Assembly: GCA_965243065.1 (NCBI GenBank)
Contig: CBDETO010000005.1
Span: 1,470,672 to 1,534,671 of the forward strand
DNA from: Bdellovibrionales bacterium
Lineage (GTDB): Bacteria > Bdellovibrionota > Bdellovibrionia > Bdellovibrionales > UBA1609
Direction of reading: 5' to 3'
Length of the DNA stretch: 64,000 bases
Within the stretch, counting starts at the first letter, position 1. Each line of letters opens with the position of its first letter. Made by a program: the position numbers and the translations under genes. Positions 5,691-31,156 of the stretch are shown here, piece after piece. Below the pieces are notes generated by a model. The model saw nothing but the letters and a program-made list of their open reading frames with translations, was not told where the DNA came from and did not search any database.

Positions 5691-5767
5691 CGGGGAGTAG
5701 CGCAGTCCGGTAGCGCATCCGCTTTGGGAGCGGAGGGTCGCAGGTTCAAATCCTGTCTCCCCGACCA
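5691..5767 (+). tRNA. tRNA-Pro (anticodon UGG), CCA encoded
   Basis: Manual fold: acceptor CGGGGAG/CTCCCCG, D-arm GCGC-AGTCCGGTA-GCGC, anticodon arm TCCGC-TTTGGGA-GCGGA (TGG at 34-36), T-arm GCAGG-TTCAAAT-CCTGT, discriminator A, CCA. Confidence 0.9.
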
Positions 5768-5888
5768 TCTGATTGCACGAACTTTGTAAATTCTGTGTTT
5801 GGACATTTCAGGAAATGTCGGGGTATTTCAAGCCCCTGAGTTTCTTGGTTAATCAGGCAACTGCCATTTCACTGTGTTTATGTCTGGG
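5751..5888 (+). repeat. Direct repeat, left copy: tRNA-Pro 3' end (17 nt) plus 121 nt downstream (att-like core plus element left arm)
   Basis: Identical to 21651-21779 over 129 nt at a fixed offset of 15900, then 2 mismatches in the next 9 nt, then divergence. Confidence 0.9.
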
Positions 5889-6024
5889 TATTTCCCAGTA
5901 TTTCAATCTGTGGCTACAAATGGCTACATATTTAGCTACACGGATTTTCAACTTAGTCAGGGGCTTCTTTGGTGGATAAAAGATTTGATGCGTTGTAAAT
6001 AGTCTTGATTATAATGTCCATTAT

Positions 6025-6285
6025 ATGATAACTATCATATATAACCCTATATTAGTAAAGTTATATATGAACCAATCAAAAAAACACTTACCAATAATAG
6101 CAAGAAATATCAGAAAATATAGAAATGAAAAAGGTATCTCTCAAGATAAACTTTCTAAACTTGCAGAGGTATCATTTAACACAATTACAAAAATTGAAGC
6201 AGGAGATACACCAAATCCAACTGTTGAGACCGTAAGGAAGATTGCTATTGCTTTAGATGTTACTATTGATAACTTAATGAAATAA
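6025..6285 (+). CDS. XRE-family helix-turn-helix transcriptional regulator
   Basis: IRKYRNEKGISQDKLSKLAEVSFNTITKIEAGDTPNPTVETVRKIAIALDVTIDNL is a classic HTH_3 (Cro/C1) pattern. The real start may be MNQSKKH at 6067. Confidence 0.8.
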   Translation: MITIIYNPILVKLYMNQSKKHLPIIARNIRKYRNEKGISQDKLSKLAEVSFNTITKIEAGDTPNPTVETVRKIAIALDVTIDNLMK

Positions 6286-6409
6286 AAATTATGTCAGATC
6301 AAATATCATCAAAAAACCTTTGGAAAAATCTTTTTGAAAAAAAAGAAGTAGTTGAGCTTTCAGAGCGGGTCAACCCCCTAAATTTCGGACTGAAATCTTG
6401 TCATTTTTG

Positions 6410-7338
6410 TCATAATCTAAGTTCATAATCGGCTAAGTTGAGCCGAGGAAGGCGTTTTTTAAACTCCTCTATGGTCATATTTAACGCCCCATGTATTTTC
6501 TTCTTTCTGTAAAATTCAATAAACTCCACCATTGTCTCATGTGCTGAACGGAAGTCTAAAAATGTTCTGGGGCCTGTCACATTAGCCGATACTAAGGAGA
6601 AGAAAGACTCAATATACGCATTCTTATTAGGACACCTAGGAGGTATAAACTCATGCACTACAGGAAGAGTCTTTATTCCCTCTGACAGCTTTTTAGAGGT
6701 CATCTGAGGACCATTATCAGAGCGGATCACCAGATTATGGTCTTTAATGATTTTATGTTCTATAAGACCTACTTTTAAAGTCCTTAAAATATCCTCTGCT
6801 AAACACCTCAGCCCTATATGATAAGCCACTATATCCCTTGTAAAAACATCTATAAAGGCACACAGGAAGAAAAACGCAACCCCCCCACTATGCAATAAAA
6901 TACGCCCATATTTAATATCAAATTGCCAGAGTTGATAAGGACCAGTAATAACCCTATTCTCATACGCTGTGTGGCCTTCTCTTTTTCTCTTTTGTTTCTT
7001 ATGAAGTAGAAGATGGTTTTCCTTACAGATAGAGTACATCCTCTTATGGTTGATAGGACGAACCTTAAGGTATGGGTCCTCATTAGCATACTGCGCTAAA
7101 ACTCTATGACCTCCACTTGTGTCAAAAAAACTCTCCTTCTGTCTTTTTTTCCTTACCCAATCAGCTATCTGCTGATCCTCTACGGGATGCCTGGAAACTC
7201 TTTTACGCAAAGGATGACAACTAAAACACACTTTCTTAGAGGATATAAAATCAAATTAGGTAGAACGCTTAATACCCACTTCCTGTAAAATCTCATTCAC
7301 AGAATGCAGAGGGTAAGCTCCCTTTGTAAGTTCCTTTG
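6410..7338 (-). pseudogene. IS3-family transposase OrfB (DDE integrase core), interrupted by a nonsense codon
   Basis: DDE pattern: WQFDIKY.., ..VIRSDNGPQMTS.., ..NKNAYIESFFS. Upstream in the same frame it reads ..EVGIKRST*FDFISSKKVCFSCHP.. with TAA at 7256-7258 where Tyr is expected. Confidence 0.75.
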
Positions 7339-7659
7339 CTAATTCTTTTCTTCTGGCAAAATCTGAACCGTTTTTTTTACAATGTCACGAAGAAGCCTGA
7401 CTCTTTCATTAAGCTTTGCGTTTTCCCTCTTAAGCTCCAGTAAATCTTGAAAATGACGACTCTTCTCTAAAGACTTCTTTTCAAACTTCTTACTCTTCCT
7501 CTTTACATCTGACTTCCAGTTATACACAGTTTGCTTGCTCACATTATAATGGCGGGCTACCGCCTCTGCTGATCCACTCTCCGCTAACTCTAAAAGAGCC
7601 TTCTTTTTCAACTCCAATGGATACTTAACCTTTGTTTTACTCTCTATATCTGACATCAA
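7339..7659 (-). CDS. IS3-family transposase OrfA (HTH)
   Basis: YPLELKKKALLELAESGSAEAVARHYNVSKQTVYNWK followed by a leucine-zipper-like coiled coil is the typical IS3 OrfA pattern. Confidence 0.8.
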   Translation of the reverse strand: MMSDIESKTKVKYPLELKKKALLELAESGSAEAVARHYNVSKQTVYNWKSDVKRKSKKFEKKSLEKSRHFQDLLELKRENAKLNERVRLLRDIVKKTVQILPEEKN

Positions 7660-7741
7660 TAACCCCCTTTTAGTAGAACATATCCTCTCTTATAAGAATA
7701 TCCTAACATCTATTAGATCTCAGTCCGGATTATATAGGGGG

Positions 7742-8287
7742 CTAAAGAGGTTTTAAAGAATGGCTGAGTAAGGTTTTAAGAAGAGTAGTTTTTCCCTGAC
7801 CTGTAGCTCCTGAAACAACAGTATGTTGAACTCTTGATCTTAAATCCAAAAGAACAGGTCTTTTTGAAATAAGAGAAATACCAATAGGAGCGGATTCTTC
7901 TTTTTCCATAAGAGAACTAAGCCTTGAAAATTTTACTTTCTTTTTCTTAAGTTTTTCTACTGTGATCTTTTCCAAAGGAAGAGTTTTATTAAAAGACCAT
8001 GAGAAATACCAATGTCTTAAAAAGAAATATAAAGCGGAACCCATAAAGAAATAAAAAAGATTCCAATTATTAAATAAAGACATTTTTTCATGGGCAAAAC
8101 AATAAAGCCAAAGACATCCAACAAGCCATCCACATAAAACAAGTGAGCGAGCAATATTTTCAAACACAGCTCCCACTCCTGACTTGGCTTTAACAGGCAT
8201 TATGGAAAAATGAATCACAGCCCAGATAGCCATGATAATTTCTTCCATAAAATCTTCTAAAGTTTTATCTTTCTCTTTGCTAACCAT
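7742..8287 (-). pseudogene. N-terminal fragment of a TraD/VirD4/FtsK-like coupling ATPase, cut off at the IS3 junction
   Basis: Hydrophobic segments are followed by the Walker A motif VVSGATGQGKTTLL only 14 aa before the stop, and the stop abuts the IS end at 7741. The rest of the NTPase domain is absent. Confidence 0.6.
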
Positions 8288-8383: not shown

Positions 8384-9253
8384 TTATTTTGTTTTTACTT
8401 TCAGCCACTCCAACAGAGTAAGGTTTCCGTATCTATGAGATATGACTTCTTCCAAGTTTGAATAATGAGCAATAGAGATGTATTTCCTACTTTGGAAGGC
8501 TCTTATAAGCCTTTGCATTTTCTTAATATGAGCAGTGACATACAGAACATGAGTAAAACGAGACCTTCTGTATTCAGCCATTTTCAGAAAATAAAGTTTC
8601 CTACTTTTTAAATGCAGCTCCAATTCTATAGCTAGTTTATAATCTTCACCCTGGATATAAAAGTCAGGAAGAGGTTCATACTTTCCATTATGTAAAGTGT
8701 TTTTTAATTCCTTAACTTGATTTTCAAAGATAGCTTTTTTGTTTAAAAGCTTTTCCAGTCTTTCTCTTACAGAAAAAAGTAAGAGCTGATGTGTTCTTTT
8801 CCAGTCACTACTTTTTCTTTTCTTTAAGTAGCATTTATCAGAAAGACTTATTACTTTTAAGTTTCTTCCAATAAGTCCCATAGAAGAATTATCCAATGTT
8901 CTTTTAAGATTATGGAAAGCAACAGGCTCTATGGAAATATAACCTTGATTTTTTAATTTGCTGAGACGATTACAGGCGGAAGCATCAGAAGAAAAAAACT
9001 TTTTCTTTATGTCACTATAAAAACAAAAGTCTTGATTCTGGAGAAGATCAATAATTTGTTTATCTCTTCCAGTTAGTCTTACATTTGCAGGTTGAGCTTT
9101 TTTATTTCTTTTTTCCTGATTTAGTTTTACAGATATGTTTGATAAATTCCTCCTGCCCTCAAGCCCTCCACGAAAGGGTGCGAGGGTATTCGGGCAGGGT
9201 GAATTTATGTTTGTTGAATATTTTTTAAATATCTCTTCTTTTCTCTCAGACAT
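8384..9253 (-). CDS. Replication-relaxation (Replic_Relax)-like protein of mobile elements
   Basis: LTGRDKQIIDLLQNQDFCFYSDIKKKFFSSDASACNRLSKLKNQGYISIEP matches the N-terminal wHTH pattern of the family (LT.RD..IL..L...R.L...Q......S...A.RRL..L...G.). It sits next to a coupling-ATPase fragment. The assignment is from memory only. Confidence 0.5.
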   Translation of the reverse strand: MSERKEEIFKKYSTNINSPCPNTLAPFRGGLEGRRNLSNISVKLNQEKRNKKAQPANVRLTGRDKQIIDLLQNQDFCFYSDIKKKFFSSDASACNRLSKLKNQGYISIEPVAFHNLKRTLDNSSMGLIGRNLKVISLSDKCYLKKRKSSDWKRTHQLLLFSVRERLEKLLNKKAIFENQVKELKNTLHNGKYEPLPDFYIQGEDYKLAIELELHLKSRKLYFLKMAEYRRSRFTHVLYVTAHIKKMQRLIRAFQSRKYISIAHYSNLEEVISHRYGNLTLLEWLKVKTK

Positions 9254-10044: not shown

Positions 10045-10590
10045 TTATAATGGATATTCCTTAGTTGCATCCTTGAGGATACTCTCTACAAATAACTTTA
10101 TTCCTTTTTTCTGTTTATCATTCATTTGATTGATACAAGCTCCTAATTCGTTGTTACATTTAGATTTATTCAAGTCATCACCTAAACCATTATAAGTGAG
10201 GTTTTGTGAACCAAATAAAATCGTGTTAAAGTCAGCAATTAAAACTTTTGCATGAAGGTGTTTATCAAAGTACCAAAGAACCTCATTCCCTGAGCCTAGA
10301 CGATATCTAAATTTATTCTGATCTAAACCTTCTTGAATATTTTTAAAATCATTTCTTCTCATCTCGTTATCGGGATTACGACTAATCATAATCAGTTTTC
10401 TACCTCCTGTACCCTCACTAAAAACTGTCTTAAAAATTTTCGAGAATATTTGTGAATCAATAAAAGGAGAAATCACATAAAACTCACTAGCATTAGATTC
10501 CAAAATCCTCCAAAATAAGTTTCTGAAATCATACTGCCCCGTTTTTCTTACTGTTACTAATGGAAAAATAAAATCCAACTCAACCTCCAA
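10045..10590 (-). CDS. Stand-alone single-HKD phospholipase-D-family nuclease (Nuc/BfiI-catalytic-domain-like)
   Basis: Canonical HxK-x4-D-x6-GSxN motif: HAKVLIAD-FNTILF-GSQN. At 181 aa there is room for the catalytic domain only. The start overlaps the upstream gene by 11 nt. Confidence 0.75.
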   Translation of the reverse strand: MEVELDFIFPLVTVRKTGQYDFRNLFWRILESNASEFYVISPFIDSQIFSKIFKTVFSEGTGGRKLIMISRNPDNEMRRNDFKNIQEGLDQNKFRYRLGSGNEVLWYFDKHLHAKVLIADFNTILFGSQNLTYNGLGDDLNKSKCNNELGACINQMNDKQKKGIKLFVESILKDATKEYPL

Positions 10591-11794
10591 ATAATTTTTT
10601 TACTTCATGACCAGTAGTATGCATATCATATACCCAATCAAAATCTACATCCTTGATTTTTATGAATTTACCATCTTCTTTCTTTAAAACACCGTGGTCT
10701 TCTAAGAACCTCAGAGAATGTTCAGGCCATTCTTGGTCTATAGGTTGACCTTTTACTACTTTATTTACAATTTCTAAAGTTTTATTTATCTTCCCTGAAT
10801 CTTTTTCAAATTTGAAGAAAATATCTAGAAACCAAATCGGTGTCTTAGAAATTGTATTTCCTAGGACTTGGATACCTGTTTCAGTTAATTTGATTTGTCT
10901 CGGGGGAACAGTGCCAGTTTTATGATCAGAAAATGTACTCAAAGTCCAATGCCTCACATCTTCTAGTTTTATTGGAATTAATTCAATCAAATTGATATTT
11001 TTGAGTAGCCTAAAGTAATTATTTACTACATCAGCTGTATTTCTGAATTTGCGAGCCTTCTCACTGTCACTTAAAGCTTTGCATGTACTATCTTCCATCG
11101 CACTTCTTAATTCATTCTCAAAAGCTATTTTATAGTCGAAAGAGCCTCTTTCCTTTTCCACAAAGTGACTATCAATTCTATTTATAACCATCCTTTCTGT
11201 TACTAGATTATCTATCTCAGAGAGTGGCCAAAATCTACAGGCTGTTAAAGCTATGTCATCAATTTCGCAACGGACTGAATGTTCCTTTGCCTTCATCGCA
11301 GCATACAATATCATTAGAAAGATACGTAAACGATATGCTCCATAGCTGGCTTGTCTATGTCCCTCCTTAAAGATATTTTTTTTCTTGGATTGTGGTGAAA
11401 CTACTTTAACTCGTACTATATACTTTTGTAAAAATTGTAGTAGGTTCATTCCTTCTACGATTTCCTCACCTCGTCTAGTGACCATATCTTCATCATCTAT
11501 GGCTCCCATTGTTCTAAGAAATGACTGCATGGTTCTTATATCTGCAGGATCAGTCTGCTTGCTTCGATCATAAGCTTTATACTGATTTTCACCTTTCATT
11601 AGATTTAAGTATCGTTCTTCACGCTCAGAACTAGATATTGGGCGACTGTCTCTTTTCCTTCGTTTAAGATAAGTTTTTATCATCTCTTGGTATCTATCCT
11701 CGAAATTATAACCAGCCCCCTTGATTTGAATAATCAAACCTCTACAACCACTTTGCCGACTATCCCTGCCAGTATATTGTTTTTTTGTTGCCAT
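10580..11794 (-). CDS. Hypothetical 404-aa protein, middle gene of the MTase-PLD operon (candidate DNA-recognition/specificity partner)
   Basis: Long clean ORF that starts 3 nt after the MTase stop and overlaps the PLD start. I can name no catalytic motif in it. Confidence 0.5.
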   Translation of the reverse strand: MATKKQYTGRDSRQSGCRGLIIQIKGAGYNFEDRYQEMIKTYLKRRKRDSRPISSSEREERYLNLMKGENQYKAYDRSKQTDPADIRTMQSFLRTMGAIDDEDMVTRRGEEIVEGMNLLQFLQKYIVRVKVVSPQSKKKNIFKEGHRQASYGAYRLRIFLMILYAAMKAKEHSVRCEIDDIALTACRFWPLSEIDNLVTERMVINRIDSHFVEKERGSFDYKIAFENELRSAMEDSTCKALSDSEKARKFRNTADVVNNYFRLLKNINLIELIPIKLEDVRHWTLSTFSDHKTGTVPPRQIKLTETGIQVLGNTISKTPIWFLDIFFKFEKDSGKINKTLEIVNKVVKGQPIDQEWPEHSLRFLEDHGVLKKEDGKFIKIKDVDFDWVYDMHTTGHEVKKLFGG

Positions 11795-11797
11795 AAT

Positions 11798-13039
11798 TTA
11801 TTTCTTGAATATTTGTACTACTTCACAAAGTTTCATTCCCCCTCGTGACCTTCTTTCTCTAAGAAAAACTTCATGTGTAGATGAAAAACCGACTTCCTTA
11901 GCAATACGCTCTAAGTGTTTATGAGTGGGAATATGAACATTATTAAACGCAGAATCGCCCATGACAGAGTAAGCTACTCCGCCTTTACGTAAAACTCTAT
12001 ACATACTTTCAGTCACATGCCACATTTCATGAAAATAGTTTGCAACCATAGGCGTAATTCTCGGATCATATGCCTTTCTTCTAATAGCCTTTATTGTTTT
12101 ATTAATTTCTTTAATAGAGAACATTTCAAATGTACGATTTTGAGCAGTATTAATACTGCATGTAATTGAAGCTTTTCTAAGATTTTTTAAATCTGCATCT
12201 GTCTGTAAGAGACCAGATAACCAAAGTTCTAGCTTCGTATTTCTACAATAATTTGTTCCATTCAAATAAGGAGGTGAAGTAATGATTAAATCCACATCTC
12301 CATCAGCTGTCCATTTTAGACTTTCGGCAGAAGAGCAATATATTTTAGCTCTCCCAATTGCATACACTTCTAAATTACAAATATCTGAAATTATTTGCAT
12401 CAATCTTTTTTCAAATTCAACCTTTGCTTTTTTAGTATTCCACAGTTCTTTTGGTCGATATTTCAAATCAGGAGATCGTTTAAGGTTAGAGATTTCGACT
12501 GAGATAGATAATAAAGACAATAGAAAAATTATTTTTAAATCTTCATCTTCAATAGCCTCAATGTTACTACGAATCTTGAAAATTTGTCTTAAGTTTTCCC
12601 TAGAGTAGTAGTGTTTACCTTTGAAAATATTAGTTAAATAATTTTCTTCAGGTTCTTTATCAATCACTTTTTTCATTAAAAGGTAGATTTCATTCTTAGT
12701 AAGATCACCACGTTTAATTTTTCTAGCCAAGCGAAATGAATGATGTGTTTTTCCTTCCCCAATCAATTTCATAACGGGATTAATATCATATCCTTGGAAG
12801 AACTTATCCGACAATACTGTTTCTACACCAGTTGTTGAACTCCCTGCAAATGGATCGACCACATGATAAGAATGAGGATTTTCTTTTAGAATTTCTTTAA
12901 CAAATTGATGACTATAACCTTCCGTATAGCTAAACCAACTGTGAATAGGTATATACTTATTTTCTTTAAATACTCCAGCATCACGCAGTTTGAACTGCCT
13001 ATTATTCTCCCATAATGGATAACTTCCTAATTCTTCCAT
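11798..13039 (-). CDS. DNA methyltransferase (N4-C or N6-A, amino-MTase; motif order I then IV)
   Basis: AdoMet motif VVDPFAGSSTTGVE near aa 62 and catalytic motif DLIITSPPYLNGTNY near aa 255. Confidence 0.8.
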   Translation of the reverse strand: MEELGSYPLWENNRQFKLRDAGVFKENKYIPIHSWFSYTEGYSHQFVKEILKENPHSYHVVDPFAGSSTTGVETVLSDKFFQGYDINPVMKLIGEGKTHHSFRLARKIKRGDLTKNEIYLLMKKVIDKEPEENYLTNIFKGKHYYSRENLRQIFKIRSNIEAIEDEDLKIIFLLSLLSISVEISNLKRSPDLKYRPKELWNTKKAKVEFEKRLMQIISDICNLEVYAIGRAKIYCSSAESLKWTADGDVDLIITSPPYLNGTNYCRNTKLELWLSGLLQTDADLKNLRKASITCSINTAQNRTFEMFSIKEINKTIKAIRRKAYDPRITPMVANYFHEMWHVTESMYRVLRKGGVAYSVMGDSAFNNVHIPTHKHLERIAKEVGFSSTHEVFLRERRSRGGMKLCEVVQIFKK

Positions 13040-13220: not shown

Positions 13221-14345
13221 CTATACTATTATTTCTTTAATATGAGATTGTAATTCCTGTATAAAGTTTTCCATATTATCTTCGCTCCAAAACAGAACTT
13301 TATATTGACGTATATCGAAAGGAAGTTCTCTTACTAATTTCTTATTACAGGTATAAATGACAGGTATATTTTTACCTTTAGCATATCCAGCTTCAAAATA
13401 AACACTACCTCTAGGTTGCTTTTCTTCTGAAGTTAAGTCACATATAACAAACCGAGCCTTCTCTATTTCAGATAAAATTTCGTCATCAATTTTGTTGTTA
13501 TGTTTTTTATCATCAATTCTTAAAGGTTTATACCCTGTTTTTTTGACTGCCACTTCAACATTTTTTTTCAGATTATCCATAGAAGGATCAATCCACATAG
13601 CAATAAAAGCAGTATTTGATTTCTTATTTGGAATTTTATTTTCAATCTCTTCAATTCTTCTCCAACCTTTTGAACTTACTATAATATCAAGATTACCCCC
13701 AACATAACTACCTTCACAATTAATATCTTTTGATTCTTGTAGAGAATTCATTAAAAATCGAAACGCTGTTGAATTAGTACAGTAGGTTAGAGCAGATAAA
13801 AAAGGGACAGGATTCTCTCTTTTATTCGGATGTATGAGCATCCTAAGTGGATTATGATAGTTCCAACTATCTCTTCTATTTGAATCTATATCTTCCAGAG
13901 TTATAACACTCCCTATATCACTTGAGTACCGTTTCACTAAACCTTCTAACAATAAATAAGATCTTTCATGCTGATTAGGGATAGGTAATAACTTCTCTAA
14001 CCAATCATCACTTTTTATTATTTTATCAAGAGAAGGTATATTACCTTTCAAATTCTCTCTTGCAATCAAGCCAGATAAACGAATTTTTTCATCTTCACTT
14101 AATAATCTTGAAATATTTTTATTATCCTGATCAAAGGTTGTGAGTTCTGTACCAAAATATAATAATTCTTCTGAAATATATTTCCCTCCAGCCCAAGGAT
14201 TATATACTTCATATTTATGTGGTGAATCTGAAGGTTTCTTGCGAAAATAAGGAGGGTAATCCATAGCTTTCTCCTCAAAATTAACAGGCCATCTGTCATC
14301 AAAAGGATACAGGTGTGTACCCCATATAATACATTTGCGATTCAT
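13221..14345 (-). CDS. Two-domain protein: unknown N-terminal region plus C-terminal nucleoside 2-deoxyribosyltransferase-like / TIR-like domain
   Basis: The C-terminal 130 aa read TAFIAMWIDPSMD..IDDEILSEIEKARFVICDLTSEEKQPRGSVYFEAGYAKGKNIPVIYT. This fits the F(V/I)AMPF ... IAD.T ... NV.(F/Y)E.G.A..GK.VI pattern of NDT-like Rossmann domains, with the conserved Glu in YFEAG. Confidence 0.55.
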   Translation of the reverse strand: MNRKCIIWGTHLYPFDDRWPVNFEEKAMDYPPYFRKKPSDSPHKYEVYNPWAGGKYISEELLYFGTELTTFDQDNKNISRLLSEDEKIRLSGLIARENLKGNIPSLDKIIKSDDWLEKLLPIPNQHERSYLLLEGLVKRYSSDIGSVITLEDIDSNRRDSWNYHNPLRMLIHPNKRENPVPFLSALTYCTNSTAFRFLMNSLQESKDINCEGSYVGGNLDIIVSSKGWRRIEEIENKIPNKKSNTAFIAMWIDPSMDNLKKNVEVAVKKTGYKPLRIDDKKHNNKIDDEILSEIEKARFVICDLTSEEKQPRGSVYFEAGYAKGKNIPVIYTCNKKLVRELPFDIRQYKVLFWSEDNMENFIQELQSHIKEIIV

Positions 14346-15525: not shown

Positions 15526-15612
15526 TATGATTGTAAATAATTGAAATTACAGGAATTTTTATAAAAATATTTTTTAATTAAGCATAATCAGCTAGTATTT
15601 TCTTAGCATCAT

Positions 15613-17256: not shown

Positions 17257-17440
17257 TACGATCCATTTAATTTGCTTATAATGCTTAATATGTTAAATAA
17301 GCACTACAGTGTGATATTTAATATATCACATAAGACTCATATGTGAAGAAAATAATGCTTAATAAGACTAAACACTGTAATCAATTATTTCAAGGGAACT
17401 CATCAGCCATTTGCGGTTAGTTTTAAGCCTTTTTTATGCA

Positions 17441-21526: not shown

Positions 21527-21650
21527 TTTTACGGGAAATTTACGGGATGTCCTGGTTAGGAGAGGTGAGAAGCGGTTAGCAACGGGAAACAAGAGTGGTT
21601 TTTTGTTGAACGGTTCAGTTATTTTTGACTTTTGAAACCCTATGCCTGCG
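21527..21650 (+). repeat. Conserved element arm, copy b, immediately left of the intact tRNA-Pro core repeat
   Basis: TTTTACGGGAAATTTACGGGATGTCCTGGTTAGGAGAGGTGAGAAGCGGTTAGCAACGGGAAACAAGAGTGG..GTTATTTTTGACTTTTGAAAC aligns with copies a (15387) and c (31001). Confidence 0.8.
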
Positions 21651-21788
21651 TCCTGTCTCCCCGACCATCTGATTGCACGAACTTTGTAAATTCTGTGTTT
21701 GGACATTTCAGGAAATGTCGGGGTATTTCAAGCCCCTGAGTTTCTTGGTTAATCAGGCAACTGCCATTTCACTGTGTTTGTGTCCGGG
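21651..21788 (+). repeat. Direct repeat, right copy (tRNA-Pro 3' core plus 121 nt)
   Basis: See 5751-5888. TCCTGTCTCCCCGACCA followed by TCTGATTGCACGAACTTTGTAAATTCTG.. is identical to the sequence after the tRNA. Confidence 0.9.
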
Positions 21789-23127: not shown

Positions 23128-23362
23128 AAAACCCTATCACACCCTTATTATAGATGTCCATAACTAAGTTATTTGTATATCATATCTAGTGTAATTATTT
23201 CACCTCTGTTATTTCGCTATACAACATAATAAGGCGACTATTAATGGAATATACTTCATTGGAAAACACCGAAGTTACAAGGGTTAGTTTCTGAACCTGT
23301 AAAAATCAAAGCTCAGGTTTTATATTTTTTGGTTAGCTTATCAGCCGAAGCGAAATGGCAAG

Positions 23363-24448
23363 TCAACGATGTTCTGTTCCCCCCTTGCGGGTGAGATAAT
23401 CCCCGGATACAATTTTTCTCAAACAGCGATCTCCGTTTTGGTCCCTGGTTTCTGTGGGAGTGCGAAGAACAACCCCTTCACGAATATGATCAGCACCTTC
23501 AATAACTGTCTTCCCGTCAGCCAGCTGGTTGGCCCGTTCGATCTCCTTACCTCCCGGACACTCTGTCTCCCCAAGAAGAGGAACGCAACAAATCCCAGCC
23601 TCCTGAGCCAAAGCCTGCACCTCTGTAAAGTCCGCATACTGCCATCCATTTTCACTACCCAGTTTAACAATAGCTTCAAAAATATAAAACTCCGGCTGCT
23701 GATGTCCGTAATGAATATCCTGTACTTTTCGACCCACAATCTCACCAATCACACCGGTTGCAAAAGCCTTTGGCCATTTGGTATCCAGAGCTTTTCTTAT
23801 TTCTGAAAGTTTTGGTCCCAATATTTTGTGGTATAGATTCTCCTTATCTTGTTTCAAAGCCATATTCTTTGCCGCAAGCCCTTTTGAGGAAATAACAACC
23901 TCTCCCTTGTAAAACACGACAACACAGAGGGTCCCATGCAGCTTTTCTGTAATAAGAACCTTCGTCCCTGGCAGGATGGCTTCAGGATCAGACTTCCAGC
24001 TCTCAACATCATACCGGGGAAGCCGGACAGGGCTTACATAAACCTGACCTTCCATTCGCACGGGAACCGGTGGTTCATACTTGGTTATTCCTAAAAATCC
24101 ACTCACATCCTCTCCCTCATTAAAACTTTTTTGTTCACCTGTTTCCGGGTGAGTCAGCTTTCCATCTTCAAAGGGAAGGATCAAGCCCTGAGAGAGAATC
24201 TTCCTAAGCCTTATGGCCTTAACTCTATTCTTACGGCTTCCCGCTAGCCGCCCTTCTACCCCGATAACTTTCTGAATAGCTTCAGGAACAAGAGCCTGTT
24301 CAGGAATATAGACCACCTTTTCACCTACCCGGTGTTGCCCTCTGCCCACCACAACTTGCCAACCTCCAATACGAGCCACATCTAATCTGTCCGCATGCGG
24401 ATGAGTAGAAACCTCATCCAGATGGCACACCTTTACTTTAAATTCCAT
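23363..24448 (-). CDS. ATP-dependent RNA ligase (Rnl2/Rnl5-like; N-terminal OB-like domain plus nucleotidyltransferase domain)
   Basis: The N-terminus VKVCHLDEVSTHPHADRLDVARIGGWQVVVGRGQHRVGEKVVYIPEQALVP follows the DRB0094-type RNA ligase pattern. Motif I is ITEKLHGT (K-x-H-G as in T4 Rnl2 EKIHGTN). G+C is far above the flanks. Confidence 0.6.
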   Translation of the reverse strand: MEFKVKVCHLDEVSTHPHADRLDVARIGGWQVVVGRGQHRVGEKVVYIPEQALVPEAIQKVIGVEGRLAGSRKNRVKAIRLRKILSQGLILPFEDGKLTHPETGEQKSFNEGEDVSGFLGITKYEPPVPVRMEGQVYVSPVRLPRYDVESWKSDPEAILPGTKVLITEKLHGTLCVVVFYKGEVVISSKGLAAKNMALKQDKENLYHKILGPKLSEIRKALDTKWPKAFATGVIGEIVGRKVQDIHYGHQQPEFYIFEAIVKLGSENGWQYADFTEVQALAQEAGICCVPLLGETECPGGKEIERANQLADGKTVIEGADHIREGVVLRTPTETRDQNGDRCLRKIVSGDYLTRKGGTEHR

Positions 24449-24538: not shown

Positions 24539-25293
24539 GGTTCAAGATAACTTAAAGTGGTCATTTTTAATAAGTTTTAACAATATTCTATATAAGTCAT
24601 CTTGTCTATAATTAAATCTAAATTCACACTCTTTGAGATGCAAGTAAAAAGTATCCTTATTCATTCCTCTAAATTTAGATAATCTCACTTTAGCTAATCC
24701 CCAAAAGTTTTCAATTCCATTGATATGGTTTTTTATATTCTTTTGTTCTCTTTTTGCAAACTCATTCTTACCATGATGAACTCTGTAATGCTTTGTATAG
24801 CCCATATTCATTAACCCATCATAAGTCTTAAAATCATCTGTATATACAATAACTAACCTAGATATTCTTTGATTTATAAGGGGAATAATGACTTTTTTAG
24901 AGCAATTCTTAATAACTTGGGTATAGACTTTATCTTCTCTGTGTTTAAGGCCAAACACGATTGTTTTACCATAAGAGCCTCTTCCTCTTTTTCCCTTAAT
25001 GCGTTTAGCTCCGAATTAACTTTCATCTATTTCTATTTCTTCTTTTTTGAAAGGGCTTTGTTTCTCACAAAATCGGGCAATCTGCATTCTGATTTGTTTT
25101 AAAATTTTGTTAGTTGTGGGGCGACTTACTCCTGATAGAAAAGCTATTTGTGTAGCTGTTAAATCAGCAGAGAAAAACTTAATAATTTCTCTAAATTTCT
25201 TCTCTGAAATACGGGGACGAATAAAATACCTACTTTTCACAGTCATAACAATAAGTTAACTCCTATTAAAGTCAACTCAAATAGTCATGAACC
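24539..25293 (-). mobile_element. IS1595-family (IS1016-size) insertion sequence with inactivated transposase
   Basis: 755 nt. Imperfect IRs: GGTTCAAGATAACTTAAAGTGG (24539-) against the reverse complement of ..GTCAACTCAAATAGTCATGAACC (-25293) = GGTTCATGACTATTTGAGTTGAC. It has a single transposase frame. Confidence 0.75.
24542..25246 (-). pseudogene. IS1595-family (ISXO2-like DDE) transposase with an in-frame nonsense codon
   Basis: The two ORFs (25246-25016 and 24958-24542) are in the same frame. The junction reads EIEIDES*FGAKRIKGKRGRGSYGKTIVFGLKHREDKVYT, with TAA at 25016-25018 replacing the Tyr of the family motif DESYFGG.RKGKRGRG. Confidence 0.75.
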
Positions 25294-25564
25294 TTTTTAT
25301 TAAAATGTAGTTTTCAAACTATGTTTATTTGTTTAATTTTTTTCAGATAAGAACCGATAATATTTTTATGCATTACTTAGTTGGTGGGTTGTTCCTCTTT
25401 TGTTCAATAAGTTTTGTTCGTTTCATTTACTTATACTATTCCAGTAAAAGAGATTTCGAAAAATTAAATCAACCTTATAATATAGGGAATTATATAAGAA
25501 GCCTTAGAAATGTAGATTGTCCTTGACCCCCAAAAAGAGGCTACCTCCTAAATAAGGAGGAAAA

Positions 25565-25924
25565 GTGGAAAGGTTCTATAAGAGAGTTCCAAAAGAGCAA
25601 AGGTTCTTAATTTTGTCAGAGCATTTCAATGGCGGTTTGAGTATATCTGAGTTATCTAGGAAGTATCAGATTCAACCAGCTACGATCTATAAATGGAGGG
25701 AGAAGATGAAAAAAGAAGAGGAGAAGCTTTCTTTTGATTCAAAGCCACTTTTGGAAGAGATAAAGCACTTAAAGCAAGAAAACAGTCTTTTAAAGGAAAC
25801 AGTGGCTCAACAGGCATTGGATATCACCACACTCAAGCAGTTCAATGAGTTTGTTAAAAAAAAGCGGAAGGAAGAAAGACGGAGTATGCAAAAGAGTTCC
25901 TTGAGGGTCAGAGGATCGAAGTGA
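25565..25924 (+). CDS. IS3-family transposase OrfA (copy 2)
   Basis: The translation is identical to the copy 1 OrfA (119 aa). Confidence 0.85.
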   Translation: MERFYKRVPKEQRFLILSEHFNGGLSISELSRKYQIQPATIYKWREKMKKEEEKLSFDSKPLLEEIKHLKQENSLLKETVAQQALDITTLKQFNEFVKKKRKEERRSMQKSSLRVRGSK

Positions 25925-26739
25925 GCAAGAAGAGGTTTTGTGAGTTGATTGATATTCACCCAAAGTCCATTCACAAGGGTAAAAAGGTTAAGGCCATTTC
26001 CACTGCCAAGAGGAAGCGAGAGGAAATGGATAAAGAAGTGTTGTCAGGGATTAAGGAAGTGATAAGGCACCGTAGTACTTATGGTTATAAGCGGGTGACA
26101 GCTTTATATAATAGGAAGAGGGTGAACAATGGTCTGAGCAGGTATAACAAGAAGCGTATTTATCGTGTCATGCGGGATAATGGTTTGTTGCTTCCGAAAT
26201 CAGGTATTTTGAAGAGGGAGCATAAGGGCACGGGTAAAGTGATGACGTTATATTCAAACACCAGGTGGTGTTCAGATTGTTTTGAGATACATTGTTTTAA
26301 TGGGGAGAAGGTGTATGTGTGTTTTGTTTTAGATAGTCATGACAGGGAGATAATAAGCTTTGTGTCTTCTTATCGTCCGTTGTTATCGGAAGATATTCAG
26401 AGTTTAATGGTTATGGCTGTAGAGCGTAGATTTTCAGGCGGAAGAGCTTCTAGGGAGATTGAGTTTTTATCGGATCGGGGGAGTATTTACAGGGCTTATA
26501 ATGTGCAGGCTTTAGCCAGGCGGTTGGGCTTAAAATCGTGTTTTACAAGAGCTTATAGTCCTGAAAGCAATGGTATGGCGGAAGCCTTTGTGAAGACATT
26601 AAAGAGGGATTATGTGTATGTGAGTGATTGTTATGATGCACAGACAACGATGAAACTATTGGAGCAGTGGATGATTATAATCACAGGGCACCGCATTCCA
26701 GCCTTGGAATGCGTTCTCCGGTGGAGTATATTAAATTAA
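25921..26739 (+). pseudogene. IS3-family transposase OrfB (copy 2), C-terminus frameshifted
   Basis: Identical to copy 1 up to ..KLLEQW. The 4-nt deletion then replaces IYDYNHRAPHSSLGMRSPVEYIKLTQSR with MIIITGHRIPALECVLRWSILN. Confidence 0.8.
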
Positions 26740-28585
26740 CACAATCGAGGTAGCCAAAAATGGGGGCCAATCCAAGATTTTTCACCTGATCAACAAGTTC
26801 TTAGTTCAAAAGTACGAAATACACTTAAACAACCAATAAACAAGTCAAATATCCTACCCCTAACCCCTGCTATATTAGATAGTACTTGGGAAGGAGCTAA
26901 TATAATGCGCCAGTATTTGTGTATAGATGACAATTTCTATGAAGGAATTTCTAAATTATCTAATGAAACAATAGAAAATTTTTCTGATTTGTCCGCTAAA
27001 CTCAAAACCTATGAACATAGTTTTCAAGGGTTAACAGAGGGTAGTCTAAGCAAAATTAAAGGGCATATAGCTGAAAGTCACATTGCTGAGCATTTTAAAG
27101 AGGCTGGAATAGCAGTTACTTGGCCGGAAGCTTCTAATCAAGAAGGGTTTGATCTATTATTTAATGGGAATCCCATACAATCAAAATTTATTGAAGACGC
27201 CAATAATCTTGTGGAACACTTTCAAAAATATCCAGATATACCTGTTGTTATTCCTTCTGATGCAAACAACATACCGGAAACAGCCTTTCATTTTGACCCT
27301 TCTGAAGGTATAGGTAATTTATTTAATTATCTTAAAGACAATCCTGAAAACGCAGTTATTGTGGATCACAAACTCTCTAATGTGAATTTAACAGAGAGTA
27401 TTGAACAAGGTTCAGACTTAGCCACAGGAACTGTTGATTTTAATTTTCCTTGGGTTACTGCTGCTTTTTCTAGCTTTCGTGAATTAAATCTTCTTATAAA
27501 TAATGACACGGATATTTCTTCATCTATTAAAAATATGGGGCTTGATGTAGCTGGTGTCGGTATAGGCGCAATGACCGGCGGAGAAATTGGAGCAATAGCA
27601 GGTTCTATTATCCCTGGCCCTGGAACAGTTATCGGAGCTGGTATGGGTGTTGTTATTGGTGCTATTATGGGTCGTAACATTACAAATGATATAAAACAAG
27701 AACCGCTAAAAGAAGCTATAAAAAAACTAAAGAAGTCAAGAAGAAGATTGAAATTAGAAGCGAAAAAAATACAAGAAAAATATAATCAACAGTTTAATAA
27801 ATTCAAAAAAGAGGAACAAAATAAAATAAATTGTAAAGCCAAAGAAAGCAAGGAAACTGTAAGAAGAAAAATAAGCACTCTTAGAAGATGGGCAGTGAAT
27901 CGAGAAAAGCTTTCAGATAGTTTAAAAACCAATCTGTTAAAAAATATTGAGGATCAAGGACAAGTAAAACATATTAAGAAAAAAGAAACACCAAGTTTGA
28001 TAGAATATTTATGGCTAGATCAAAAAATGATAATGCTAATAGCGTTTCAAAGAAATATAAACAAATATAAAAAGTATTTCATAGAAAGCTTTACACAAAA
28101 TAAATTTAAAGATAAGGGAGATTTGTTTCAGGAATTTTCTAAAAAAGGATTGTGTCAAAAATATATTTTATCAGAAATAAAAAAATCAGAAGAACAAAGA
28201 AAAACAAAGGAAAACTATTTGATGAATGAAATTAAAAAGGAACAAGCAGGTATATTGAAACTCCGTGCTAAATCTATGAAACGTCTCGCTTCTAAGGTGG
28301 AAAAATATATTGAACAGATAAAGAGAGATTTATTTCCATATATTAAGGACATAAAAAGCTATCATGATCTTTTAGAAAAAGAAACTAAAAAATTAGGAAG
28401 AAAGCCTGCCTAAGATAGCTATTCTATTAAAACAGATTTTTAATAAGACCTTTACTCATCAAAGGCATATTAAACATTATAACTTTTTAATCGATATTAA
28501 AATAAAGAAGTCAGATTAGTTTATTCAGATTACATATATAAAAATCTTTCATTGTCGACAGGGTATGAAAAATGATGCCTACCAA

Positions 28586-28610
28586 CTGTCTACTTTTCAG
28601 GGACGATCCA
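28586..28610 (+). repeat. Left copy of a 25-nt inverted repeat bracketing the three-gene cassette
   Basis: CTGTCTACTTTTCAGGGACGATCCA. The reverse complement of 30906-30930 is CTGTCCACTTTTCAGGGACGATCCA (24/25 identical). Confidence 0.85.
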
Positions 28611-28672
28611 TGAACCTACCATATAATCTAACTGTTACTTGTCTGTGATTGTTACCTAATTATCCAATTCCC

Positions 28673-29095
28673 CTATTTTATTCCATTTAACCTTGGAGTC
28701 CATTTAGAATCAGAAGCAAGCTTTTTTGCATAATTTATTTTTTCATCCACTTCTATATTTTCAGGTAAGTTGATATCAGCATGGTAAGGGTTATCTTTTA
28801 TAGGTGTTGCCTGAACTGTTCCACCATTTTTTCTCACATCTCTAGCTTCTATTTTTGCCCAGCCATAAAAAGATCGTTTTCTTCCTTCTGTTCGTGATCT
28901 TAACTCTGCATTTTTATCTTGAATTTGAGTAAGTATTTTTTTTGAGCAAAAACCAAAACGATCTACTGAAAGAGATCTGCTTTCTTTATAAAAGAAAATA
29001 TTAAAATCTATATTACCTCTGATAGCTCTCTTTACTTGTCCACTAGAAAAAACAGCTCTTCCAAGAAAATCATCATCGTGAATATTTTTATGCAT
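28673..29095 (-). CDS. Hypothetical protein (140 aa), last gene of the three-gene cassette
   Basis: The ORF overlaps the upstream gene by 8 nt (ATGCATAA). Conserved-looking segments are LSVDRFGF and FYGWAKIEARDVRKNGGTVQATPIKDNPYHADINLPE. I cannot assign a family. Confidence 0.5.
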   Translation of the reverse strand: MHKNIHDDDFLGRAVFSSGQVKRAIRGNIDFNIFFYKESRSLSVDRFGFCSKKILTQIQDKNAELRSRTEGRKRSFYGWAKIEARDVRKNGGTVQATPIKDNPYHADINLPENIEVDEKINYAKKLASDSKWTPRLNGIK

Positions 29096-29861
29096 ATTGA
29101 TATTTTGTGTCCGTAGTAGAATTATAAATTACATTCTGTATTTTAAAAGGAAGTAGATCCTTATCAGGAGTAACCACTAATGAGGTTTTTTTTGTAAAGT
29201 CTTCATTTAAAGAGTACTTTGTTTCTTTGTTGAGTTTTGCAAATGTTTTCCATAAAAGATCATAAGGGAAATCTTCAATATTATCACAACGAAATCGACT
29301 GTTTTTCCCATCTAGTGTGGAAAAGTATGCAACACTACCATTAGAATCACAAAGTATTAATATTCCTCTCCCTTTATAAGGATTACAATCAATAGCAATT
29401 TCTTGATTTTCTGTGGGATATATATAATACTCATAATTGGGAAATTTTTTATAGACGGCATTTAAAATTTTTTGAGCATTTTCCTCTGCTATCTCACTAA
29501 AACTTTCAAAGCCTTCTTCTTCACACTCTTTATGTAAATTATCTAAAGTTTCATTTAGATTTTTTAAAATCTCATTCTTCATAATAATAAGACCTTGTTC
29601 CACTTCAGCCTCAATCTGTTGTATTTTCTCTTTAATTGAAGAATTTACTCTTATAGAGAAAGTCGTGAATAATACATTGTAATTGGATAAAAGTTTTGTA
29701 GTAGTGTCTTTTAGAACCACACGGTATTGAGTATCCAAATAAGATAGTTCTTCCTTCCAAGATGAAACGGAATTATCAAACTTTTCCAATGAAAAAGGAA
29801 CAGTATAAGCTTTAGATTTATTTGAAATAGATGATTGTTTTTTCCAAAATTGCCAATTCAT
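29088..29861 (-). CDS. Hypothetical protein (257 aa), middle gene of the three-gene cassette
   Basis: The start overlaps the upstream stop (TAATG). It has a central coiled-coil-like stretch and a C-terminal beta-rich segment YYIYPTENQEIAIDCNPYKGRGILILCDSNGSVAYFSTLDG. No family assigned. Confidence 0.5.
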   Translation of the reverse strand: MNWQFWKKQSSISNKSKAYTVPFSLEKFDNSVSSWKEELSYLDTQYRVVLKDTTTKLLSNYNVLFTTFSIRVNSSIKEKIQQIEAEVEQGLIIMKNEILKNLNETLDNLHKECEEEGFESFSEIAEENAQKILNAVYKKFPNYEYYIYPTENQEIAIDCNPYKGRGILILCDSNGSVAYFSTLDGKNSRFRCDNIEDFPYDLLWKTFAKLNKETKYSLNEDFTKKTSLVVTPDKDLLPFKIQNVIYNSTTDTKYQYA

Positions 29862-30517
29862 TAGAAACCCTCTATAAACTGTTTAGATTTTTTATAATTC
29901 TCTTCCAACTCTCCAATAATATTTATTGTATTGTCAGTATAGCCACTTGGGTAATGAACATTTACTTTGAAAAATGGGACAAAGTCTTTTTCAGTTTCTT
30001 GAAGCTGGGTATTTTGCTTTACCCTTTCCACCTTTCTGGCTGTAACATTGAACTGCTTTCCCCTCACATTATAAGATAGATCAATACTACGTATTTCCCC
30101 TTTATTACTTTCAAAATTTAAATGAGCACTGTCCATATTAACTACTTTTTCAATAAAGGACTGATATCCTAAATCATCCCTTATAAAATCAAAATTTATA
30201 CCAATAGCCTTGTAATTAATATTAAATAACTGAACATACTTAGAGCATATATCTTTTAAAGTATTCAAATTGTTTAAATTATCTGATTCATTAATATTAG
30301 GGTTTGAAAACTGAAATAGTGTTTTATTAGGTTCACCTATTATATTAAATCCGTTGCTATAATAGATTTGACTCACAACAGGTGTATTAAAAGAATTGCT
30401 TTTCTTTTGAAAACTTTCTGGAATAACTTTTTGATTCACCAAAAACTCATGATTCACAGATGCCACATGATCTTGCGTCACTAAAACTACTGAACAATTT
30501 ATTAATATTAATTGCAT
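29861..30517 (-). CDS. Hypothetical protein (218 aa), first gene of the three-gene cassette
   Basis: Clean ORF with a 660-nt AT-rich non-coding region upstream. No motif recognised. Confidence 0.5.
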   Translation of the reverse strand: MQLILINCSVVLVTQDHVASVNHEFLVNQKVIPESFQKKSNSFNTPVVSQIYYSNGFNIIGEPNKTLFQFSNPNINESDNLNNLNTLKDICSKYVQLFNINYKAIGINFDFIRDDLGYQSFIEKVVNMDSAHLNFESNKGEIRSIDLSYNVRGKQFNVTARKVERVKQNTQLQETEKDFVPFFKVNVHYPSGYTDNTINIIGELEENYKKSKQFIEGF

Positions 30518-30804
30518 ACCTTAATTAAATCTACTGAAAATTATCTTTTTATTTTTTAACACAGAAAACTATTTAAACGGCATGTTGTAACTTTCAAGCA
30601 GATTAAGAATAATGTGATAGGTTTTCTTGATTCGTCAAGCCTAAAGTACTGAAAGCCGATTTAATTCCTGTTTTTTCTACCCTGATATATATTCCAAATC
30701 AGATGTCTGAAGATTCTTTTCAAACAATTTATAATAAAAAATCTCCTTTTTTATTATCGTCATAAGCTTAAGACTACTTAAACACAGATTTAAAGTAAAA
30801 TTGA

Positions 30805-30900
30805 CCACTTTCGTACTTTTTTAGAAATTGTTCGCTACTTTTCTCTGATTTTTCCACTTTTTAGAAAGTTTCCACTTATTTTAAAAACTACTAAAAAAGA
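30805..30900 (+). repeat. Degenerate copies of the 42-nt iteron-like repeat
   Basis: ..CCACTTTCGTACTTTTTTAGAAA / TTGTTCGCTACTTTTCTCTGATTTTTCCACTTTTTAGAAAG / TTTCCACTTATTTTAAAAAC.. aligns with the unit TTTCCGCCTACTTTCCGCT + ..TTTTTCC.ATTT.TCAGAAAC at 17441-17662. Confidence 0.6.
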
Positions 30901-30905
30901 CTGAT

Positions 30906-30930
30906 TGGATCGTCCCTGAAAAGTGGACAG
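30906..30930 (-). repeat. Right copy of the 25-nt inverted repeat bracketing the three-gene cassette
   Basis: TGGATCGTCCCTGAAAAGTGGACAG on the plus strand. See 28586-28610. Confidence 0.85.
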
Positions 30931-31000
30931 GGAAAAACGGGACAATTTACCTCCAGAGGTTTACCTGTTTTACTTTTAAATAAAGTAACTTTTTACAAAA

Positions 31001-31101
31001 TCTTTACGGGAAATTTATGGGATATGCTGGGTAGGAGAGGTGAGAAGCAATTAGCAACGGAAAGTAAGAGTGGATTTTTGTTAAACGGTTCCGTTATTTT
31101 T
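31001..31101 (+). repeat. Conserved element arm, copy c, truncated by an IS1595 end fragment
   Basis: TCTTTACGGGAAATTTATGGGATATGCTGGGTAGGAGAGGTGAGAAGCAATTAGCAACGGAAAGTAAGAGTGGATTTTTGTTAAACGGTTCCGTTATTTTTCA aligns with copies a and b. The alignment stops where IS-end-like sequence begins. Confidence 0.75.
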
Positions 31102-31156
31102 CATGTGATAACCATAGGTTAACTACCTTTTAAGTCAACTCAAGTTATCTTGAACC
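31097..31156 (+). mobile_element. Solo IS1595 end fragment (about 60 nt)
   Basis: TTTTCATGTGATAACCATAGGTTAACTACCTTTTAAGTCAACTCAAGTTATCTTGAACC parallels the IS right end TTTTCACAGTCATAACAATAAGTTAACTCCTATTAAAGTCAACTCAAATAGTCATGAACC (25235-25293). Confidence 0.65.

Follow-up and report, generated by a model that had tools for sequence, protein, structure and literature searches.

Three probable decayed integrative elements in tandem at the tRNA-Pro gene of a sponge-associated Bdellovibrionales bacterium

The window analysed in the current study is a 64,000-nucleotide (nt) stretch of the genome of an uncultured, sponge-associated Bdellovibrionales bacterium (assembly GCA_965243065.1, contig CBDETO010000005.1; G+C content of approximately 36%), the sequence of which is present in sponge metagenomes and in 2025 runs. 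Its left flank is identical to short contigs of one sponge-metagenome-assembled genome, and its right part carries ordinary core genes (ileS, ligA, gatAB and PBP1). The subject of this report is the integrase-less island of approximately 25 kb which starts at a tRNA-Pro gene and consists of three modules, designated A (5768-15525), B (15526-21667) and C (21668-31101), the features of which are collected in Table 1. We consider it probable that three integrative mobilisable or conjugative elements, members of one family and now decayed, have accumulated here in tandem, each having entered the 16-nt 3' end of the tRNA-Pro gene by site-specific recombination.

Attachment-site repeats at the tRNA-Pro gene

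The 16-nt tRNA-Pro 3' end, which constitutes the core, is found in exact form at positions 5751 and 21651 and with three of its 16 positions mismatched at 15512, i.e. three matches where 0.2 would be expected. The initial annotation had described the recurrence of this tRNA end and the adjoining arm at 21651-21788, and this was confirmed: the segment 5751-5888 (the 16-nt tRNA 3' end and the next 121 nt) recurs there with 129 of the first 129 positions identical, the first mismatches between the two copies of the core and the left arm of type 1 (left arm 1) being located at 5880 and 5885. The copy next to the tRNA gene also holds, at approximately 5807-5831, a degenerate version of a paired repeat that is seen in the arms of related elements (see below).

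A further conserved sequence of approximately 123 nt, here termed the right arm, is present in three copies (15389-15511, 21528-21650 and 31003-31101), which are 91%, 88% and 85% identical when compared in pairs. Its opening motif, TTTACGGGAANTTTAYGGGAT, occurs three times against an expectation of 0.03, a number that none of 100 shuffled sequences reached, and a motif search of the window returned only the three right-arm copies at the tRNA-Pro island. The first two copies directly precede a core, decayed at 15512 and exact at 21651, in agreement with the initial annotation, and alignment also bore out the claim that the third copy is cut by the end of an insertion sequence (IS) of the IS1595 family, as the 52-nt stretch 31105-31156 matches the terminal part (25242-25293) of the IS1595 copy with 79% identity. 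Module B, which had been read as lacking a left arm, was found to possess one of a second type (left arm 2), although only its core-proximal block, ATTGTAAATAATTGAAATTACAGGAATTTT, homologous to that of relatives, is kept (15526 to approximately 15570, approximately 45 nt) and no paired repeats are present. RNAalifold analysis of eight right-arm copies detected no conserved RNA fold (-5.9 kcal/mol, with a covariation term of -0.04) and the right arm gave no Rfam match; on these grounds it was rejected as a structured RNA or an attC-like site, and the lack of a conserved RNA fold is consistent with a DNA site.

The earlier observation that no recombinase gene is present withstood a wider search. 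Pfam analysis of all open reading frames (ORFs) of at least 75 amino acids (aa) between 5.7 and 31.2 kb identified no tyrosine or serine recombinase, only DDE transposases, with no match to Phage_integrase, resolvase or recombinase domains, and when 120 integrases of the family were compared with the whole window by tblastn, no integrase remnant was detected and only noise was returned (best E value of 0.011, outside the island). Similarly, tblastn detected no homologue in the window of the excisionase (Xis) of the related locus L005, and no HTH_17 Pfam match was obtained beside the tRNA gene. The 371-aa ORF to the left of tRNA-Pro was considered as a hidden recombinase and dismissed, since its product has a signal peptide, is outer-membrane-barrel-like, ends in F and has no Pfam match. 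In two metagenome runs, X1 and X2, at least three contigs with integrase genes of the family (approximately 80-88% identity) occur at the depth of the window genome (20, 18.1 and 20.9 versus approximately 20-21 in X1; 18, 20.8 and 24.2 versus approximately 19-27 in X2). Integrases able to act in trans probably exist in this genome, equal depth in itself being no proof.

Table 1. Coordinates of the features of the tRNA-Pro island in the window.
Feature	Position	Strand	Basis and remarks
tRNA-Pro(tgg)	5691..5767	+	ARAGORN, Rfam; integration target; core formed by last 16 nt (5751-5766, TCCTGTCTCCCCGACC)
Left arm type 1, copy 1 (integrase-proximal arm of module A)	5768..5888	+	Counterpart at 21668-21788; aligned with left arms of relatives
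HTH_3 (XRE-type) regulator gene	6025..6285	+	Pfam
IS3-family element A	~6386..7727	-	orfA 7339..7659, orfB 6410..7231; Pfam; inverted repeats; unitig breaks at 6398/7721
Type IV coupling protein (T4CP), N-terminal 181 codons	7742..8287	-	Pfam FtsK_SpoIIIE/TrwB_AAD_bind; cut off at IS3
MobC/Replic_Relax-like mobilisation-backbone protein	8384..9253	-	Homology to L014 and L015 proteins
Restriction-modification-like cargo	10045..13039	-	Pfam; PADLOC
Protein with TIR-like / nucleoside 2-deoxyribosyltransferase-like C-terminus, candidate defence effector	13221..14345	-	PADLOC TIR effector 1e-11; Pfam
Module A right arm (15389-15511) and decayed core TCCTGTATCCCCGATA (3/16 mismatched)	15389..15527	+	Repeat alignment, core search
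Module B left arm type 2	15526..15612	+	Alignment with left arms of L006, L014, L015, L017
AAA_14/DUF4143 ATPase (PADLOC candidate system PDC-S01)	15613..17256	-	Pfam; PADLOC 1e-47
Four 42-nt iteron-like repeats (AGAAAGTTTCCGCCTACTTTCCGC)	17431..17634	+	Repeat search, module B
DUF4268 / PDC-S11 gene split by IS3-family element B (18547-19816)	17802..20014	-	Pfam; PADLOC 4.5e-60 from profile position 67; IS ends
attP-like junction	21528..21788	+	Module B right arm 21528-21650, exact core 21651-21666, left arm type 1 copy 2 21668-21788
Module C cargo	21961..24448	-	388-aa protein with 48-nt coding repeats 21961..23127 (TRF); RNA ligase with PHA02142 OB-fold domain 23363..24448 (Pfam)
IS1595-family element, broken transposase	24540..25293	-	ORFs 24542..24958 and 25016..25246; Pfam; ends
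IS3-family element C	25517..26782	+	99.5% identical to element B, 4-bp deletion
Module C cargo without assigned function	26905..30517	.	502-aa glycine-zipper protein (+); - strand ORFs 28673..29095, 29088..29861, 29861..30517
Module C right arm	31003..31101	+	Last ~22 nt and core missing
Solo IS1595 end fragment	31102..31156	+	In place of right-arm end and core

Integrase-bearing relatives and the element family

Searches with the arm motif recovered loci (here given L numbers) from metagenome-assembled genomes labelled Bdellovibrionales. The right arms of the window are 82-92% identical to those of L006, L004 and L008 and 73-79% identical to the attR arm of L036, the latter with E values of 1e-12 to 1e-16. 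Four of the eight genome matches to the 21-nt motif (Paenibacillus, Nitrosomonadales, Lachnospiraceae and Eubacteriales) were set aside as chance matches, none of which extends past the motif, the chance expectation being approximately 2 in 1.2e12 positions; IMG/VR likewise yielded one chance match to the motif and no integrase relatives.

Several of these loci consist of modules without an integrase. In L006 (OZ242172.1, a 1.56-Mb chromosome), a tRNA-Pro gene is followed by a 1.8-kb module with an AbiEii gene and a neighbouring 301-aa ORF, and a right arm approximately 90% identical to the window arms; an exact core comes next, then a second module, with MazEF, which ends at a decayed core. 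In L008 (two copies) and L004, both of APA_bin_46, the place of the tRNA-Pro core after the right arm is taken by the tRNA-Leu 3' end, CCCTCCGCGGGCACCA, and the cargo of the modules comprises ParE-type toxin-antitoxin, AAA_14/DUF4143 and NYN genes. Other loci carry the integrase itself. L005, also of APA_bin_46, displays an intact tRNA-Leu gene, a 118-nt arm with TTTACGGGAAATTTACGGGAT, a 395-aa tyrosine integrase (Int) converging on the tRNA gene and an HTH_17 excisionase-like gene, while in L018 a right arm, a core, a left arm and an integrase stand in a row, with an integrase-less ApeA/Vsr/HaeII module upstream. L036 is a complete element of 6.46 kb between exact 16-nt tRNA-Ala core repeats, arranged as tRNA-Ala core, left arm with a TTTTAACGGGA pair, Int, HTH_17 gene, 232-aa protein, small ORFs, NYN gene, right arm and core. 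In L014, which is located in the same genome as L006, the integrase closes an integrative and conjugative element (ICE) in the order TrbC, VirB4/TraG-like ATPase, further ORFs, 232-aa protein, 556-aa T4CP, two small ORFs, HTH_17 gene, Int and tRNA-Val, the last lying 110 nt from Int; L015 has a Replic_Relax protein in place of the transfer genes.

The L005 integrase has 530 relatives at an E value of 1e-10 or lower. Among the matches listed, most are on sponge-associated contigs, the chromosomes measure 1.4-2.3 Mb and several integrase paralogues per chromosome are common. Integrases of 42-54% identity from unrelated metagenomes are found in the same layout at tRNA-Ser, -Trp, -Arg and -Ala genes, with Int approximately 100 nt from the converging tRNA gene. 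Two JGI metagenome contigs, L020 and L033, represent minimal members, with 3.6 kb and 2.5 kb, respectively, between core repeats (exact in L020, one mismatch in L033), little beyond Int and Xis, and the same paired repeat on both arms.

On the left arm of these loci, paired direct repeats are found at a distance of 40-75 nt from the tRNA end, and the pair recurs approximately 105-125 nt before the distal core where the other end is available (L020, L033 and L036). Their sequence is TTTACGGGA in L005, L015/L016 and the right arms of the window, L006, L004 and L008; TTTGCGTGA in L014, L017, L018 (left arm), L022 and L039; TCTGTGA in L020 (both arms) and L030; GGGTGTGA in L033 (both arms); TCCGTGA in L027; GTACGTGA in L023; TTTAACGGGA in the left arm of L036 (the right arm of which pairs TTTAACGGGA with TTTGACGGGA) and the right arm of L018; and TTTTAGTGA in L037. 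The repeat thus differs by integrase subgroup and matches between the two arms of one element (L020, L033 and L036); since the repeats change together with the integrase, these sequences of 8-10 nt most likely represent its putative arm-type binding sites.

The modules of the window conform to this plan to differing degrees. They are bounded by direct repeats of a tRNA 3' end, as are L036, L020 and L033, and their three right-arm copies open with a pair of direct repeats; left arm 1 presents a degenerate pair at the expected distance, and left arm 2 shares only the core-proximal block TTGAAATTAC. Because of loci L006, L008, L004, L005, L018 and L036, the right arm is identified, by sequence comparison, as the integrase-distal attachment arm of an integrative element family in which the core follows the targeted tRNA (Pro, Leu or Ala). 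The proposal of the initial annotation that one element family had integrated repeatedly and site-specifically is substantiated by the homology of the right arm to the attR of the integrase-bearing loci L036 and L018 and by the tRNA 3' end that follows it, in each genome that of the tRNA targeted there.

Module contents and strain variation

Module A alone retains a mobilisation backbone, as a remnant. The MobC/Replic_Relax-like protein is 57% identical to the 232-aa protein beside the T4CP of L014 and 30% identical (E value of 4e-18) to the Replic_Relax protein of L015, and has a weak NCBIfam match to MobC_subf; a database look-up returned no record for it. The T4CP fragment shares approximately 65% aa identity with the N-terminus of the 556-aa T4CP of L014, and the order and orientation of both genes relative to the tRNA gene are the same as in the L014 ICE. 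The span between the T4CP fragment and left arm 1 is filled by IS3 element A, which has the terminal inverted repeats CGGACTGA(A/G)ATCT, and by the HTH_3 gene. As relatives carry the T4CP C-terminus, Xis and Int at the same place, the IS3 element sits in their slot; module A is demonstrably a decayed element whose integrase slot holds an IS3, and the integrase would have been lost through an IS3-associated deletion.

The cargo was correctly foreseen as being of the defence and mobility type, as PADLOC and Pfam identified a type II methyltransferase, a PLD nuclease, a TIR-like effector, PDC-S01, PDC-S11, IS3 and IS1595. The restriction-modification-like genes of module A encode the PLD nuclease (10045..10590; DrmC/ZacB-like PLD in PADLOC), a 404-aa protein without assigned function (10580..11794) and a type II N6/N4 methyltransferase (11798..13039; PADLOC MTase_II, 3e-47). 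In module B, the AAA_14/DUF4143 gene has a homologue among the cargo of the L008 array, and the 42-nt repeats may be bound by a replication or regulatory protein that the element itself encodes; one or two degenerate units of the same repeat were also observed at 30790-30885, approximately 120-200 nt before the right arm of module C. IS3 element B has a depth of approximately 12x, i.e. approximately 12 copies per genome. Its counterpart in module C, element C, is missing in run X7, where the joint 25513->26775 represents the empty site, and because of this absence the family of elements B and C appears to be currently active in the population. In module C, cargo begins straight after the copy of left arm 1, and the distal core is gone. 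The ORFs at 26905..30517 had no confident Pfam, PADLOC or NCBIfam match. A 25-nt inverted repeat (28586-28610 / 30906-30930, 96% complementary), located in sequence of approximately 14x depth in X1, may mark the ends of a small multicopy element within module C.

Strains were compared by placing k-mer contigs of metagenome runs on the region at a minimum of 85-90% identity. In runs X1, X2 and X6, all three modules are present at genome depth. In X7 and X8, the flanks and module C are at genome depth with approximately 0.3% differences, and depth is zero over modules A and B (8.0-18.5 and 19.9-21.5 kb). X7 contains a contig, at genome depth, which exactly matches 21528-21680 and has a different sequence before it; the junction from tRNA to left arm is also kept in this run and is followed by a variant of 5889-5948 before the sequences diverge. 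The right arm before module C in X7 is identical (123/123) to the module B arm of the window, while the adjacent cargo differs. Strains of one species therefore vary in what lies between the arms, and the arm-core-arm junction is kept. Look-ups with module C proteins for longer contigs of a strain without A and B yielded no record or contigs of 1.4 kb at most. Neither a circle junction nor an empty-site joint was resolvable among the k-mer contigs; for more than 130 nt the sequence expected of an excision product is the same as that of a junction already present, and contigs of this kind cannot tell the two apart.

By depth, the right arm is present in three copies per genome (60 versus 20), all at the tRNA-Pro locus, whereas the inner part of left arm 1 (approximately 80 nt, 21695-21780) and the segment 21800-21860 reach approximately 7-12x in X1 and X7. 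The initial annotation had asked whether the arm might be a generic dispersed repeat: this does not hold for the right arm, whereas inner left arm 1 is indeed multicopy, for which the likeliest source is paralogous elements elsewhere, at other tRNA genes, which share the arm. Two joints at genome-like depth were also noted in X1, one (21664/25517) bringing a right-arm end and core directly onto the IS3 left end and the other (19813/21708) bringing the IS3 right end onto inner left arm 1; these suggest that the genome has one more arm-core-arm junction at another place, interrupted by this IS3.

To the right of the island, the claim that housekeeping-type genes resume at 31178 was not upheld, as the ORFs of 31178-36603 have no Pfam or NCBIfam match; they are at genome depth in all four samples examined. 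An attempt to place the right boundary by synteny with L006 was abandoned, the right-flank proteins having no homologue there, and a second island starting from tRNA-Arg (36606-36680) was rejected, since only 3 nt separate the tRNA end from the ORF 35167..36603, too little space for an island, and repeats were not observed either. The segment 36627-37106 comprises 2.7 copies (98% identity) of a 178-nt tandem repeat, the unit of which corresponds to the leader and the 5' two-thirds of tRNA-Arg(tct); the complete tRNA-Arg is found only in the last copy (36606-36680, minus strand), and two truncated pseudo-tRNA-Arg copies lie upstream. A repeat of approximately 90 nt, present in opposite orientations at 43172-43261 and 56661-56750 and 79% identical to positions 745-833 of L005, is a small dispersed element conserved across species. 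Finally, 332-768 holds arrays of a 20-nt G+C-rich unit (TGTCATTCCCGCGAAAGCCC and variants), in a stretch of 47% G+C compared to approximately 36% around it, with no obvious gene.

Origin of the island and relation to known systems

Intact elements of this family, found in related sponge-associated Bdellovibrionales/Oligoflexia genomes, consist of a tRNA core, a left arm of approximately 110-135 nt, a tyrosine integrase converging on the tRNA gene, an HTH_17 excisionase and a MobC/Replic_Relax-like protein, joined in some cases by a coupling protein and type IV secretion genes, followed by cargo, a right arm of approximately 125 nt and the repeated core. Each module of the window keeps its right arm and would have lost its integrase end: in module A, an IS3 would replace the T4CP C-terminus, Xis and Int; in module B, only approximately 45 nt of the left arm are left; and in module C, the right core would have been removed together with the IS1595 end. 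The tandem may have arisen in three steps, namely integration, decay to a cis-mobilisable element (CIME) and further integration into the retained att site, as in the published model for such tandems (PMC5704250), which matches the window at each step; we infer both the order of events and the role of IS3 in the losses. Concerning the hallmarks of a CIME, the only transfer or integration gene remnant is the 181-codon coupling-protein fragment. As regards attL and attR, the composite of A and B has two exact cores, while the distal core of A is decayed, in B the proximal core has decayed and the left arm is truncated, and the distal core of C is lost. Only the composite A+B still possesses two exact cores, within a 138-bp direct repeat (first 129 positions identical), and for this reason it could be excised by an integrase in trans or by homologous recombination.

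A number of observations weigh against this interpretation. No element with both a tRNA-Pro core and an integrase, which would supply the cognate enzyme for the site, was recovered. Left arm 1 lacks the exact TTTACGGGA pair of the right arms and presents only TTTCAGGAAATGTCGGGGTATTTC at the expected position, so that the arms of modules A and C may be non-cognate, or the left arm may have decayed. The left-arm copies are near-identical (two mismatches in 121 nt) compared to 85-91% for the right arms, which fits a recent duplication or homologous exchange. Moreover, a very divergent A/B allele in X7 and X8 would look like absence at the identity threshold of 85-90% applied, and the depth of inner left arm 1 (approximately 7-12x) points to further copies beyond those of the window.

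The near-identity of the left-arm copies also underlies an alternative in which the layout and the strain differences arose mainly by homologous recombination at the arms, the 138-bp repeat being a recent duplication or a Campbell-type footprint. This would agree with the 129/129 identity of the copies of the core and left arm 1, with the X7 arm before module C that equals the B arm despite different cargo, with the sharing of 5889-5948 and with the lack of an integrase in the window, yet it cannot explain why a tRNA 3'-end core always stands after the right arm, nor why this core changes with the tRNA between species. As the core follows the tRNA, site-specific integration is needed for the origin of the modules and homologous recombination is secondary at most, and we consider this alternative improbable. 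Even less credible, to the point of being extremely improbable, is the notion that the arms are a generic dispersed repeat (a repetitive extragenic palindrome, a miniature inverted-repeat transposable element or a small RNA gene) near tRNA-Pro and that the modules are ordinary chromosomal DNA; the elevated depth of inner left arm 1 and 21800-21860 would suit it, but the right arm, of which a genome has exactly three copies and the window no others outside this locus, is found in five other genomes directly before a tRNA 3'-end repeat, where it bounds integrase-bearing elements, and shows neither a conserved RNA structure nor an Rfam match.

A further possibility is that integrase-less modules constitute an active cassette system, the right arm and core forming a portable site at which an integrase encoded elsewhere captures, excises and reshuffles modules in trans at tRNA anchors. 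The modules of L006, as small as 1.8 kb and with AbiE or MazEF alone, keep a well-conserved right arm and an exact core, and modules without an integrase occur likewise in L008, L004 and L018. Strains of one species differ exactly between the arms, which cassette exchange, if real, would explain; the family integrase contigs of X1 and X2 (at least three, at window-genome depth) would offer a source of the enzyme, albeit that equal depth does not prove that they share the genome, and several integrase paralogues per chromosome are common in the clade. The truncated left arms without paired repeats (module B and the L006 modules) and the decayed or lost cores (A and C) nevertheless make canonical attL x attR excision of single modules unlikely, and no circle or empty-site joint was resolvable, such products matching existing junctions over more than 130 nt. 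We therefore regard an active cassette system as rather unlikely, and there is correspondingly a small chance that tRNA-anchored, integron-like exchange of defence and toxin-antitoxin cassettes operates in these small-genome (approximately 1.5-2.3 Mb) sponge symbionts. Such modules would resemble integron arrays and Xer dif modules in being recombinase-less, each ending in a conserved site of approximately 100 nt, with toxin-antitoxin or defence cargo and a recombinase in trans. They are unlike an integron array in that no intI or attI is present beside the array (the 371-aa neighbour being outer-membrane-barrel-like) and no attC-like fold is found in the right arm, and unlike Xer/dif modules in that the bounding repeat is a tRNA 3' end which changes with the tRNA between genomes.

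The favoured interpretation, that of tandem accretion of decayed elements, has its closest parallel in the tandems of CIMEs, ICEs and integrative and mobilisable elements (IMEs) exemplified by ICESt1/ICESt3 of Streptococcus thermophilus (Pavlovic 2004, Bellanger 2011, as summarised in PMC5704250). Common to both would be site-specific integration in the 3' end of a target gene, att sites that are kept after the loss of integration and transfer genes, later elements in retained att sites and composites that are movable as one piece. The window differs from ICESt1/ICESt3 in its uncultured sponge-associated Bdellovibrionales host, in the unrelated integrase and in having no functional partner element; compared to a textbook CIME, its modules are more decayed, two of the three being without an exact core, and mobilisation in cis is here a proposal. 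With the elements of L036, L014 and L005, the modules share the right-arm family, a tRNA 3'-end core, the core-proximal block of the left arm, a backbone of MobC-like and coupling proteins and defence or toxin-antitoxin cargo, and they differ from these in being without Int and Xis, in the tRNA-Pro core and in the degenerate paired repeat of left arm 1. The tycheposons of Prochlorococcus, described by Hackl et al. in 2023, are reportedly tRNA-targeting elements that form hypervariable islands of tandem cargo modules with partial tRNA repeats between them, many without a recombinase; the recombinase and replication modules and the host phylum differ.

Tandem accretion of decayed ICEs and IMEs at a tRNA gene with defence cargo is a known way in which islands grow, and no new mechanism is implied. 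For annotation, the tandem would explain a 25-kb island without an integrase, and the combination of right arm and tRNA 3' end provides a signature for finding similar islands in relatives. The family to which the elements belong, one of integrative elements that target tRNA genes in uncultured sponge-associated Bdellovibrionales, had not been described before, and its attachment-site anatomy is unusually readable, with a conserved arm, a core that follows the tRNA and paired repeats that co-vary with the integrase. In the biology of these symbionts, the findings mean that strains of a single species exchange or lose defence and toxin-antitoxin cargo at one and the same tRNA locus.

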